Below, piece after piece: positions 58,701 to 61,700 of a stretch of DNA of 64,000 nt (position 1 is its first letter; each line of letters begins with the position of its first letter). The DNA lies in NCBI RefSeq assembly GCF_053078305.1, contig NZ_CP166879.1, one strand, 5' to 3'. Made by a program: the position numbers.

Positions 58701-61700
58701 GTCGACTTACAACCTTTTAACTGACAGCAGGAGAGGCATAATGAAAACGCTGCTGATTATTGACGCTAATCTCGGTCAGGCACGCGCCTATATGGCGAAG
58801 ACCCTGCTGGGCGCGGCGGCGCGAAAAGCAAAACTGGAAATCATCGACAATCCGAACGACGCAGAAATGGCGATTGTTCTCGGTGATTCCATCCCGAATG
58901 ACAGCGCGCTGAACGGTAAAAATGTCTGGCTGGGCGATATTTCCCGGGCAGTTGCGCACCCTGAGCTGTTCCTGAGTGAAGCCAAAGGCCATGCGAAACC
59001 TTACACTGCGCCGGTCGCTGCGACAGCACCGGTTGCCGCCAGCGGTCCGAAACGCGTAGTTGCGGTGACTGCTTGCCCGACAGGCGTAGCACACACCTTT
59101 ATGGCGGCTGAAGCCATTGAAACCGAAGCGAAAAAACGTGGCTGGTGGGTGAAAGTTGAAACCCGTGGTTCTGTTGGTGCGGGTAATGCAATCACCCCCG
59201 AAGAAGTAGCCGCAGCGGATCTGGTGATTGTGGCGGCAGATATCGAAGTGGATCTGGCGAAATTTGCTGGTAAACCGATGTATCGTACCTCTACCGGTCT
59301 GGCGCTGAAGAAAACCGCGCAGGAACTGGATAAAGCGGTTGCTGAAGCAACGCCGTATGAACCGGCGGGCAAAGCTCAAACGGCGACCTCTGAAGGTAAG
59401 AAAGAGAGTGCAGGCGCATACCGTCACTTGCTGACGGGCGTCTCTTACATGCTGCCGATGGTCGTTGCAGGTGGTCTGTGTATCGCGCTTTCTTTTGCTT
59501 TTGGTATCGAAGCGTTTAAAGAGCCGGGTACGTTGGCAGCGGCGCTGATGCAGATTGGTGGTGGTTCAGCCTTTGCGCTGATGGTGCCGGTACTGGCAGG
59601 TTACATTGCCTTCTCCATTGCCGATCGTCCGGGTCTCACGCCGGGTCTGATTGGCGGTATGCTGGCGGTCAGCACCGGTTCTGGCTTCATTGGCGGTATT
59701 ATTGCGGGCTTCCTGGCTGGTTACATTGCGAAGTTAATCAGTACGCAACTGAAACTGCCACAGAGTATGGAGGCGCTGAAACCGATCCTGATCATTCCGC
59801 TAATTTCCAGTCTGGTGGTCGGTCTGGCGATGATCTACCTGATCGGTAAACCGGTTGCTGGCATTCTCGAAGGGTTGACTCACTGGCTGCAGACCATGGG
59901 GACTGCGAATGCGGTTCTGCTGGGGGCGATCCTCGGTGGCATGATGTGTACTGACATGGGCGGTCCGGTAAATAAAGCAGCGTACGCATTCGGTGTGGGT
60001 CTGCTGAGTACTCAGACCTATGGCCCGATGGCGGCGATTATGGCGGCAGGTATGGTGCCACCGCTGGCAATGGGTCTGGCAACAATGGTGGCGCGTCGCA
60101 AATTTGACAAAGCGCAGCAGGAAGGTGGCAAAGCCGCTCTGGTTCTTGGTCTGTGCTTTATTTCGGAAGGTGCAATTCCGTTTGCTGCTCGTGATCCGAT
60201 GCGTGTGCTGCCGTGTTGTATCGTTGGTGGGGCGCTGACTGGCGCAATCTCAATGGCGATTGGTGCGAAACTGATGGCACCGCACGGTGGTCTGTTTGTT
60301 CTGCTGATCCCTGGCGCTATTACGCCGGTACTGGGTTACCTGGTAGCAATTATTGCCGGTACGCTGGTGGCGGGTTTGGCCTATGCCTTCCTGAAACGTC
60401 CGGAAGTGGACGCAGTAGCGAAAGCCGCGTAATAAAAGGTGTGTTACAGGGCAGAAATTTACTGCCCTGTATCATTGGATGAGCACAAAGAGAATGACCG
60501 GTTTGTGAATGTAATTTTATGAATTTAAATGGTTTTATCTTTCAGTAGAAACCTGAAACGTTCATCAAACACTAAGGTTATTTCCTCAAGGGCAGATTCT
60601 TTTCTGCCCTTTTTTAGTGTTCATGTTCTGTGCATCCCGTCACAAATTCCTCGCTTTTGTAATTCAGGCATTTAATCGCATTTTGTGAGCCTGCTCAAAT
60701 CTGCCCGCTTTGCCTCTCTGGCGGCAATTTACTTTACGTAAAACATGCATACTATGAGCACATGTTTAAATATGAACACATGTTTAAACCGTCTTTGCAG
60801 TATCTATATCCTTGTGGATTGACAGGGTTGGTAATTTTTTACCAGAGGACGTGCTATGCGCGAAAAGGATTATGTCGTAATTATAGGTTCGGCGAATATT
60901 GATGTCGCCGGATATTCACATGAATCATTAAATTATGCGGATTCAAATCCAGGTAAAATAAAATTTACACCTGGTGGAGTAGGGCGAAATATTGCACAAA
61001 ACCTGGCGTTGCTGGGTAACAAAGCCTGGTTACTGAGCGCAGTAGGTAGTGATTTTTATGGTCAATCGCTGCTAACGCAAACCAATCAATCTGGCGTTTA
61101 TGTCGATAAATGCCTGATTGTGCCGGGAGAAAATACGTCGAGTTATTTATCATTACTCGATAATACCGGTGAAATGCTGGTTGCTATAAATGACATGAAT
61201 ATTAGCAACGCTATTACAGCTGAATATCTCGCACAGCACCGTGAATTTATTCAGAGGGCAAAGGTCATTGTCGCGGACTGTAATATCAGTGAAGAGGCAT
61301 TGGCATGGATTCTGGATAATGCCGCCAACGTACCCGTATTTGTCGATCCGGTTTCAGCGTGGAAATGTGTCAAAGTGCGCGACCGTCTAAATCAGATCCA
61401 CACTCTGAAGCCAAACCGCCTTGAAGCGGAAACCCTGAGTGGGATTGCGCTGTCAGGGCGTGAAGATGTGGCAAAGGTTGCCGCCTGGTTCCATCAACAT
61501 GGCCTGAACCGACTGGTATTGAGCATGGGCGGCGACGGCGTTTATTACAGTGATATCAGCGGTGAAAGTGGTTGGTCTGCGCCGATCAAAACCAATGTTA
61601 TTAATGTTACCGGAGCGGGCGATGCCATGATGGCGGGACTTGCTTCGTGTTGGGTAGACGGAATGCCGTTTGCCGAATCTGTTCGTTTCGCACAGGGATG

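Follow-up and report, generated by a model that had tools for sequence, protein, structure and literature searches.

Stem-loops in the 3' untranslated region (3' UTR), including REP and BIME elements, can stabilise the upstream mRNA against 3' exonucleases. Imperfect inverted repeats can be "perfected" by quasipalindrome-templated mutation, which proceeds through intramolecular strand switching. Two further described arrangements resemble the locus analysed here: tandem or redundant terminators at the ends of operons, and the conserved intrinsic terminator of fruBKA, AGGGCAGAG-N4-CTCTGCCC-T6-8.

Here, we describe the region downstream of fruA, a gene for the fructose transporter of E. coli, in a 64,000-nucleotide stretch of DNA (contig NZ_CP166879.1 of assembly GCF_053078305.1; "the window"), where two hairpins of the fruBKA terminator type, denoted hp1 and hp2, follow each other. 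The fruA hairpin pair is nothing out of the ordinary, apart from a minor twist in its evolution: the hairpins are probably two copies of one ancestral terminator, of which the distal copy, hp2, ends the transcript, while the proximal copy, hp1, has been disabled and is only a stable stem-loop.

Two related hairpins between fruA and psuK

The locus has the following features:

58741-60432, + strand: fruA CDS (PTS fructose IIBC), last gene of fruBKA (ORF list and RefSeq annotation of a 99.8% identical strain).
60441-60475, + strand: hp1, probably a relic of the hairpin that once terminated fruBKA, with no U-tract; core ACAGGGCAG/CTGCCCTGT at 60446-60470 (folding, position and comparison).
60476-60587, + strand: spacer between hp1 and hp2, AT-rich and single-copy (fold z, covariation, copy count and alignments).
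60552-60565, + strand: Cra-consensus-like string CCTGAAACGTTCAT, judged a chance match (one mismatch to RSTGAAWCSNTHHW; not conserved).
60588-60615, + strand: hp2, functional intrinsic terminator of fruBKA; stem AAGGGCAGA/TCTGCCCTT at 60588-60611, U6 at 60610-60615 (terminator scan, folding and K-12 Term-seq).
60728-60755, + strand: putative psuK promoter, with a proposed -35 hexamer TTTACT (60728-60733), 16-nt spacer and -10 hexamer TACTAT (60750-60755).
60856-61797, + strand: psuK (pseudouridine kinase), next gene downstream (ORF list and RefSeq annotation of the 99.8% identical strain).

The fruA-psuKGT haplotype, which is deeply divergent, has this locus at its left edge. A 48-aa ORF at 60529-60675 (+) that overlaps the spacer is probably spurious. 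The same applies to a "hypothetical protein" that some genome annotations place on the minus strand of this stretch and for which there is no open frame in the window.

The core of hp1 (ACAGGGCAG-aaattta-CTGCCCTGT, 60446-60470) has its first base 13 nt past the fruA stop codon (TAA, 60430-60432), and the predicted stem reaches 60441-60475. With its G+C-rich stem-loop, hp1 resembles an intrinsic terminator, and its folding energy of -19.7 kcal/mol (z = -5.2) was equalled by 0 of 200 shuffles. It is more stable than hp2 (AAGGGCAGA-ttcttt-TCTGCCCTT, 60588-60611), which forms a likewise G+C-rich stem of 9 bp with a short, 6-nt loop at -15.5 kcal/mol (z = -5.4). The difference between the two lies in what follows the stem. 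A T6 tract (60610-60615) is found directly 3' of the hp2 stem, whereas the terminator scan detected no T-run within 8 nt of the hp1 stem. The tail of hp1 is instead UAUCAUUGGA, and in the predicted fold its bases pair with the 5' flank in an extended stem, producing a long palindrome. Because it has no T-run, hp1 was not flagged by the scan, and hp2 was the sole intergenic hairpin called.

The original prediction, made from the sequence alone, was that two related GGGCAG/CTGCCC hairpins follow fruA and that only the second, with its U-tract, is a canonical terminator. Both parts are supported by this analysis: GGGCAG-N(3-12)-CTGCCC occurs exactly twice in the 64 kb, both times downstream of fruA, against a shuffle expectation of 0.03 (a count of 2 was reached in 0 of 100 shuffles), and the scan singled out hp2. 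The hairpins were present where predicted except for a shift of one base, hp1 occupying 60446-60470 and not 60445-60469.

RNA 3' ends and the proposed regulatory roles

Term-seq in K-12 gave a dominant 3' end at 2259536(-) (supplementary file 1 of Adams et al. 2021, PMC7815308). This position is the last U of the hp2 U6 and is equivalent to 60615 in the window. The in vivo 3' end at hp2 thus comes from the K-12 orthologue, grown in M63 glucose, and not from the window strain. No 3' end was present at 22596xx, the expected position of an hp1 end, in any of the three K-12 conditions, at a weakly expressed locus where sensitivity was low (PMC7815308). The peak at hp2 (28,731) was itself near the lowest values for that strand (≈24,800), and was present only in the M63-glucose tab (PMC7815308). 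Since expression of fruBKA was low under the growth conditions and the hp2 peak is near the minimum of the list, a weaker end at hp1 would be missed, and the negative result at hp1 is weak. Within this limited sensitivity, the single end at hp2 leans against the idea that hp1 is an attenuator or processing site, for which 3'-end mapping had been proposed as the check.

In E. coli, hp2 is most likely the place where the fruBKA transcript ends (≈60615 in the window, 2259536 in K-12), which gives a 3' UTR of ≈183 nt. The 3' end had been classed as "orphan" (PMC7815308), and can now be assigned to fruA. It is conceivable that the RNA that ends at hp2 starts inside the spacer. A Rho-dependent region peaks at 2259533(-) with a Rho score of 3.5 (PMC7815308); termination downstream of fruA may thus not be purely intrinsic. 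Treatment with bicyclomycin raised the downstream coverage 3.5-fold in K-12 (PMC7815308).

We considered the possibility that the hairpins act as tandem terminators, with hp1 ending or pausing some transcripts (through NusA, NusG or the extended stem) and hp2 serving as a back-up, so that two 3' ends would be formed. The higher stability of hp1, a short U-run in its K-12 tail (AACAUUUGAU) and the low sensitivity of Term-seq at the fruA 3' locus are all compatible with such an arrangement. However, with no T-run near the stem, with the tail bases paired in the extended stem, and with no hp1 end in any of the Term-seq conditions, we consider it rather unlikely. The preferred reading, of a disabled hp1 and a working hp2, is that RNA polymerase would pass hp1, which would fold into a very stable stem-loop with no U-tract for transcript release, and would then cross the AT-rich spacer and terminate at hp2 to yield a fruBKA mRNA with the 3' UTR given above.

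In an attenuator, the two hairpins would pair with each other. The stretch AGGGCAGAAA in the 5' arm of hp1 (60448-60457) is 100% complementary over 10 nt to TTTCTGCCCT in the 3' arm of hp2 (60601-60610), and pairing between them would block the hp2 terminator and regulate read-through from fruA into psuKG; the 3.5-fold effect of bicyclomycin is in line with the same scheme. The complementarity, however, is an automatic consequence of the shared arms that result from duplication, and it is weakened in the B2 allele, in which the hp1 arms differ (GGGGC/GCCCC). Furthermore, of the competing structures, hp1 is both the first to fold and the more stable, and the minimum free energy fold of the entire 3' UTR retains both local hairpins. 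No sensor was found, be it a leader peptide, an RNA that binds a protein or the aptamer of a riboswitch: neither structure nor covariation is seen in the spacer, and the Rfam scan returned only noise at E ≤ 10 (for example, DapZ, on the wrong strand and with 25 bits compared to a gathering score of 56).

Finally, psuK is apparently transcribed from a promoter of its own, which adaptive mutations have hit repeatedly. The recurrent gut-adaptive SNP psuK/fruA 2257444 A>C, which its authors placed in the psuK promoter region, maps ≈126 nt upstream of the psuK ATG and would turn TTTACT into TTGACT. With such a promoter, psuK need not depend on read-through from fruA. Attenuation, which had been suggested for this pair of hairpins, is thus a very improbable explanation. 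(As a separate observation, the psuK promoter adjoins the hairpin locus and is altered time and again during adaptation to the mouse gut.)

A regulatory RNA made from the region between hp1 and hp2, either an Hfq-binding sRNA derived from the 3' UTR or an independent transcript, would use hp2 as its terminator. This would fit with the presence of the "orphan" hp2 end in glucose medium, in which little fruBKA expression is expected. It would also fit with Hfq RIL-seq, in which 42 chimeric fragments contained fruA-psuK intergenic RNA, close to a U-tract of 6 (PMC8175672). However, in the same data the fruA.psuK.IGR entry received a RIL-seq-based classifier score of 0.001, compared to the candidate threshold of 0.1 (PMC8175672, supplementary table 1). 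An sRNA would be expected to occupy the second position in the chimeras and to have many partners, whereas this entry was always first, as a target would be (SIC score -1), and had one interaction partner only (PMC8175672). The fragments could equally derive from the 5' region of psuK, where there is a T6 as well. The spacer has no promoter-like site on the + strand according to the scan, lacks both structure (z -0.8) and covariation, and has no match in Rfam; ≈22% of E. coli genomes have a BIME in its place. A literature search yielded nothing relevant on a fruA 3' UTR sRNA or on the fruBKA terminator. We consider a regulatory RNA to be quite unlikely.

Ancestry of the hairpins and the spacer

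The 75 fruA loci from outside Escherichia that were compared include Citrobacter, the Klebsiella oxytoca group, Enterobacter, Leclercia and Buttiauxella. Approximately 45 of them have one GGGC(A/C)G hairpin followed by a T-tract, and the hairpin starts 15-28 nt past the fruA stop in all but one locus (L050, 44 nt). The single canonical terminator in Citrobacter, Klebsiella, Enterobacter, Leclercia and others has the form AGGGCAGAG-loop-CTCTGCCCTTTTTT. By comparison, the Escherichia lineages examined have two copies of the hairpin, about 140-170 nt apart, with the exception of L006, in which hp2 was removed by a deletion. In E. coli (both allele classes), E. whittamii, E. albertii and two further Escherichia species genomes (L007 and L009), the proximal copy is located 16 nt past the stop and lacks a T-tract, while the distal copy, at +156 to +188, has one. 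The position at which the GGGCAG of hp1 starts matches that of the single terminators in Citrobacter and other genera. The fruA-psuK intergenic region measures 283-325 nt in genomes with a single terminator, compared to 411-455 nt in Escherichia, a surplus that fits a duplication.

All hairpins (33/33) could be aligned unambiguously, and the core pairs were either invariant or changed compatibly, with paired cells at 77%, compared to 42-53% when the partner column was slid. The arms of hp2 are invariant among Escherichia alleles that are otherwise ≈50% diverged, and its flank, ATTTCCTCAAGGGCAGA, corresponds to the spacer that follows the fruA stop codon in C. sedlakii and Klebsiella. At the level of sequence, the alignment establishes that both hairpins are homologous to the ancestral terminator; hp2 has kept the U-tract together with a downstream flank that looks ancestral. 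In every lineage, hp1 folds strongly (-14 to -29.5 kcal/mol), and the complementarity of its flank and tail is lineage-specific: GUGUUACA/UGUAACAU in K-12 and CAUCAUC/GAUGAUG in B2. At the DNA level, E. coli has GTGTTACA, compared to GAACAACA in sister species, and B2 has CATCATC/GATGATG.

The hp1-spacer-hp2 unit of the window allele is present at a median of one place per E. coli genome and lacks the many dispersed copies that characterise REP and BIME elements; the suggestion that it is a small repeated element finds no support in this allele. In B2-type strains and E. albertii, a multi-copy BIME replaces the spacer (≈22% of E. coli genomes), and the B2-allele spacer is found at at least 34-40 places per genome. 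Overall, neither an attenuator nor an sRNA nor a dispersed repeat was supported.

Several origins of the main-allele spacer were considered and rejected. A structured RNA or MITE was suggested by a long imperfect helix in RNAfold, but the fold had a z of only -0.8, no covariation was seen (covariation term +0.32), and there were no inverted repeats in the region beyond hp1 and hp2 themselves. A decayed BIME was suggested by a likeness seen by eye near TGAATTT, but the alignment score was below the shuffle mean. A decayed fruA 3' end, from a tandem duplication or HGT junction, shared only the 10-mer CCTGAAACGT with the end of fruA in the window, and 6 of 500 shuffles were as good. Among 13 other species, the only match was between the last ≈19 nt of the spacer and the stop codon and stop-to-terminator spacer of C. 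sedlakii (z ≈ 3), which is suggestive, but not demonstrable.

The spacer also contains the string CTGAAACGTTCAT (60553-60565), which had been noted as resembling a Cra half-site. It differs by one mismatch from RSTGAAWCSNTHHW and is close to the Cra-regulated fru operon, so that Cra (FruR) might bind there and regulate fruA 3'-end formation or psuK. However, the window contains 18 one-mismatch matches to RSTGAAWCSNTHHW, with 12.8 ± 3.4 expected, and the match is thus not above chance, whereas the two real fruB operators have zero mismatches. In K-12, the site is TTCAAACGT, in which the TGAA core is gone and reads TTCAAAC, and it is also altered in three other Escherichia species (TTAGCGCGT in L007, CTGAAATAT in L008 and CTGAAATCT in L009). 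No promoter was detected by the scan at the site, which is located ≈175 nt upstream of the putative psuK promoter. Binding of Cra is extremely unlikely, and the string should stay out of the Cra regulon.

The ancestor of the hairpin pair would have been a single intrinsic terminator, (A)AGGGCAGAG-loop-CTCTGCCC with T6-8 after it, which closes fruBKA in most Enterobacteriaceae. In the Escherichia lineage, ≈140 nt, consisting of the spacer and a second copy of the hairpin, would now separate the ancestral stem from its U-tract. The extra DNA is placed exactly at this boundary, as might be expected if a mobile element had inserted the spacer and either duplicated the hairpin or brought its own, the hairpins being element ends or a target duplication; the spacer in B2 and E. 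albertii is indeed a bona fide BIME. Conversely, only one copy of the main-allele spacer is present, no significant inverted repeats were seen in it, and it is not detectably related to BIME. We know of no transposition mechanism that yields a hairpin-sized target duplication of ≈25 bp, which also counts against a mobile-element footprint, and we regard it as unlikely.

A more general proposal is that the hairpin-spacer-hairpin arrangement was left by insertions directed at terminator hairpins, in which the stem-loop is duplicated as a whole. Lineages would have exchanged the cargo, most E. coli having the single-copy, AT-rich spacer while B2 strains and E. albertii have a BIME, and templated strand switching would then "perfect" the proximal copy into a long palindrome. 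We give this proposal only a slim chance of being correct. If true and general, BIME or hairpin-directed insertion would leave redundant terminators behind as a recognisable by-product, and terminators at such sites would decay in a stereotyped way.

Returning to a simple duplication of the terminator, the bases of hp1 that were formerly its U-tract would have become complementary to the 5' flank, leading to a longer palindrome. Because the complementary sequences differ by lineage, these changes suggest either templated "quasipalindrome correction" or compensatory change, and they would have been tolerated because hp2 supplies termination. Judging from the sequences, the palindrome may have a quasipalindrome origin, or a longer stem may have been selected for through stepwise compensatory changes. 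The stem-loop might also block 3'-to-5' exonucleases after cleavage in the AU-rich spacer; by analogy with other 3' UTR stem-loops, hp1 may thus have a residual role as an exonuclease barrier.

Relation to known systems

The practical value of these results is in annotation, and the current understanding of termination is unchanged by them. The locus is also a clear case, found in nature, of a terminator that was duplicated and whose redundant copy then lost its U-tract.

The closest known system is the conserved fruBKA intrinsic terminator, with which hp2 shares its arms, its position relative to the downstream DNA, the U-tract and the mapped 3' end, while hp1 shares the arms and the 16-nt distance from the fruA stop. 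Escherichia differs in having two copies instead of one, and in an hp1 that has no U-tract and a stem lengthened by the complementarity of flank and tail. As in tandem or redundant terminators at operon ends, two terminator-type hairpins occur in series after one operon; however, the release features are found only in the distal copy, and the proximal copy is probably a degenerate duplicate and not an independent terminator. Like REP and BIME elements, hp1 is a stable stem-loop located just past the stop codon and within the transcript, and the B2 and E. albertii allele has a genuine BIME as its spacer. In contrast, hp1 and the main-allele spacer each occur only once and have no sequence relationship to REP, and a stabilising effect is only a candidate role here. 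The clustered changes in hp1, which make its flank and tail complementary in a different way in each lineage, resemble those left by quasipalindrome mutation.

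Two related hairpins after fruA

The window comes from an E. coli strain other than K-12, and its fruA–psuK intergenic region is 99.8% identical to that of strain 104 and 96.5% identical to that of K-12 derivatives. The 423-bp gap carries no RefSeq annotation in K-12 and most strains. The features of the locus, in window coordinates, are as follows:

56656–57786, + strand, fruB
57786–58724, + strand, fruK
58741–60432, + strand, fruA
60446–60470, core of the upstream hairpin hp1, ACAGGGCAG-aaattta-CTGCCCTGT, beginning 13 nt past the fruA TAA
60588–60611, downstream hairpin hp2, AAGGGCAGA-ttcttt-TCTGCCCTT, then T6 (60610–60615)
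60728–60755, putative psuK promoter, likely from its sequence and a SNP position: −35 TTTACT, 16-nt spacer, −10 TACTAT (60750–60755)
60856–61797, + strand, psuK
61785–62723, + strand, psuG

Both hairpins of the original prediction were present, although its coordinates were low by one base. The predicted stem of hp1 reaches 60441–60475 and has a calculated folding energy of −19.7 kcal/mol (z = −5.2), while hp2 has −15.5 kcal/mol (z = −5.4). A search for the arm unit GGGCAG-N(3–12)-CTGCCC within the 64-kb window found it at two places, hp1 and hp2, with 0.03 expected and no further copy, showing that their likeness is beyond chance. Only hp2, with its T6, was flagged as terminator-like by a consensus scan, in agreement with the proposal that the second hairpin is a canonical terminator and the first is not.

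Those 3' ends that dominate in Term-seq of K-12 MG1655 were curated by Adams et al. 2021 (PMC7815308). The M63-glucose tab of their supplementary file 1 lists an end at 2259536(−), flanked by TCAAACACTCAGGTTATTTCCTCAAGGGCAGATTATTTTCTGCCCTTTTTT and ATTGTTCTGT, which by coordinate count on the K-12 sequence is the last U of the hp2 U6 and corresponds to window 60615. Adams et al. classed this end as "orphan" because it lies >50 nt past fruA (PMC7815308). Nothing is listed at 22596xx, the position expected for an end at hp1. However, the hp2 peak value, 28,731, lies close to the bottom of those given for that strand, and the peak is not found in the two LB tabs (PMC7815308); a weaker hp1 end could therefore have escaped Term-seq. 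A bicyclomycin-sensitive region has its peak, scored 3.5 for Rho, at 2259533(−) (PMC7815308), and thus Rho also limits transcription past hp2 into psuK, directly or indirectly. We conclude that hp2 most likely serves fruBKA as its working intrinsic terminator, and that hp1 is a disabled duplicate of the same terminator, kept as a stable 3'-UTR stem-loop.

The spacer and its allele classes

The spacer between the hairpins (60476–60587) is AT-rich in the window allele and showed no significant structure (fold z = −0.8); a comparison of seven Escherichia sequences showed no covariation (covariation term +0.32). A small repeated element was one possibility raised for the hairpin pair, but blastn placed the window-allele spacer at a median of one place per genome in 4,230 of 5,426 E. 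coli genomes. Inside the spacer, at 60502–60528, TTTGTGAATGTAA / TTTATGAATTTAA form an imperfect tandem repeat of 13 nt with 14-nt spacing.

The proposed Cra half-site within the spacer (60552–60565) has one mismatch to RSTGAAWCSNTHHW, which the two real fruB Cra operators (56556–56569 and 56621–56634) match perfectly. The window holds 18 such one-mismatch matches (12.8 ± 3.4 expected), the TGAA core of the string is absent in K-12, and the site is altered in other Escherichia species. Since this class of match occurs at about chance frequency and the core is not conserved, we regard the string as a chance match.

A highly divergent allele is found in about 1,200 of the 5,426 genomes, among them Nissle 1917 and strains of O2:K1:H4 and O4:H5; we call it B2-type, a name for the allele class rather than a phylogroup assignment. 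The divergent haplotype sets in 27 nt short of the fruA stop codon and extends across psuKGT as far as yeiL or beyond (window 60405–64000 compared with L004, a B2 APEC strain). Its identity is 51–55% in the intergenic region and 74–90% in the psuK and psuG genes, vs 97–99.5% in fruA, which points to an old polymorphism, or to introgression, whose breakpoint lies at the 3' end of fruA. The B2-type spacer is a BIME, with two inverted REPs flanking an IHF-like TGCAATATATTGAATTT motif (L004 4444–4580), found at at least 34–40 places per genome. E. albertii has the same hairpin–BIME–hairpin architecture (L010 3297–3430). The window, B2-type and E. albertii alleles do not differ in the arms or the T-run of hp2, although about half of the flanking sequence has diverged.

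Two loci are rearranged. E. coli Ec-U3 (L005 3612–4365) has an IS1 ≈30 nt past hp2 and a rihB fragment in place of psuK and psuG. Escherichia sp. MOD1-EC7003 (L006 3253–3770) has lost hp2 and psuK to a deletion that begins in the spacer and ends in psuG.

Attenuation and the neighboring promoters

The hp1 5' arm is complementary to the hp2 3' arm over 10 nt, because the arms are shared. The minimum-free-energy fold of the entire 3' UTR retains both local hairpins, an Rfam search matched no family, and psuK seems to be transcribed from a promoter of its own, all of which argues against the suggested attenuator. An sRNA from the intergenic region was also considered and judged unlikely. A classifier table built on RIL-seq gives fruA.psuK.IGR 42 chimeric fragments with one partner, an sRNA score of 0.001 with a threshold of 0.1, and an SIC of −1 (PMC8175672), the behavior of a target and not of an sRNA. 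These fragments might derive from the psuK 5' region.

A recurrent mouse-gut adaptive SNP, psuK/fruA 2257444 A>C, was placed within the psuK promoter region by its authors (Gordo-lab papers). Assuming an offset of 1,978 between reference versions.2 and.3 (computed, not looked up), it maps ≈126 nt 5' of the psuK ATG and would change TTTACT to TTGACT, 16 nt before TACTAT; the base there is T on the psuK strand, as A>C requires. Just 3' of the putative promoter, CACATGTTTAAA occurs twice in tandem (direct repeat ACATGTTTAAA, ≈60763–60791) and is partly conserved in the B2-type allele, and so may be an operator.

Upstream of the operon, a strong Term-seq 3' end (213,450, M63 glucose) was listed at K-12 2263539(−), 44 nt 5' of the fruB ATG (PMC7815308). 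This corresponds to window ≈56612, between the two Cra operators. The preceding sequence (window ≈56570–56612) reads GCGC...GGCGCTTTTTTT; GCGCGATC...GGTTGGCGC-TTTTTTT, and looks, within the region under Cra control, like a leader terminator or a short leader transcript.

Comparison with other fruA loci

The DNA 3' of the fruA stop was read in 80 loci, one genome per species, of which 75 were non-Escherichia. A single hairpin, (A)AGGGC(A/C)GAG-loop-CTC(T/G)GCCC, was found in ≈45 of the 75, including Citrobacter, the Klebsiella oxytoca group, Enterobacter soli, E. asburiae, Leclercia, Silvania, Pluralibacter, Atlantibacter and Buttiauxella. It starts 15–28 nt past the stop in all but one (L050, 44 nt) and is directly followed by T6–T8; judged by its sequence, it is a canonical terminator. 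The remaining non-Escherichia loci have an unrelated terminator, often with a REP 5' of it.

Nearly all Escherichia genomes (E. coli of either allele class, E. whittamii, two further Escherichia species, L007 and L009, and E. albertii) have two copies, the proximal one exactly 16 nt past the stop without a T-tract and the distal one at +156 to +188 with a T-tract; the exception is MOD1-EC7003, without hp2.

In every lineage hp1 is strongly folded (−14.2 to −29.5 kcal/mol). The bases at its former U-tract position pair with the 5' flank in lineage-specific sequences: GUGUUACA...UGUAACAU in K-12, giving a 14-bp stem, CAUCAUC...GAUGAUG in B2 and E. albertii, and UUUCA...UGGAA in L007. The main lineage has a conserved tail. 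At the 5' flank, E. coli has GTGTTACA, whereas E. whittamii and L009 have GAACAA(T/C)A, and the clustered changes create the complementarity. Such a pattern would be expected from templated quasipalindrome correction; stepwise compensatory evolution, with selection for a long stem, could also account for it. Polymorphisms within E. coli mostly preserve the hairpin (G-C to G-U in K-12), and in a large B2-type subgroup one C-to-A change opens one loop-near pair of the 13-bp stem, which still has −25 kcal/mol. The two hairpins of B2 and E. albertii have a loop-plus-arm string in common (ACATCTCTGCCC, or one close to it), which suggests occasional conversion between the copies.

An alignment of 33 hairpins over 36 columns had only one gapped column. 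Six G/C-rich core pairs were invariant or compatibly changed, pair 6-27 alternating between A-U and G-C, and 77% of cells were paired, vs 42–53% when the 3' partner was slid. Where psuK is next, the fruA–psuK gap is 283–325 nt in single-terminator loci and 411–455 nt in Escherichia, the extra length being about the hp1-to-hp2 distance. The hp2 5' flank, ATTTCCTCAAGGGCAGA, matches the spacer that follows the stop codon in C. sedlakii and Klebsiella, and the DNA 3' of hp2 is collinear with that 3' of the single terminators. From these positions, alignment, gap lengths and flanks, we conclude that hp1 and hp2 are paralogues of one ancestral fruBKA terminator, hp1 retaining the ancestral position and hp2 the U-tract. 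The pair is an ordinary feature whose evolutionary history is tidy.
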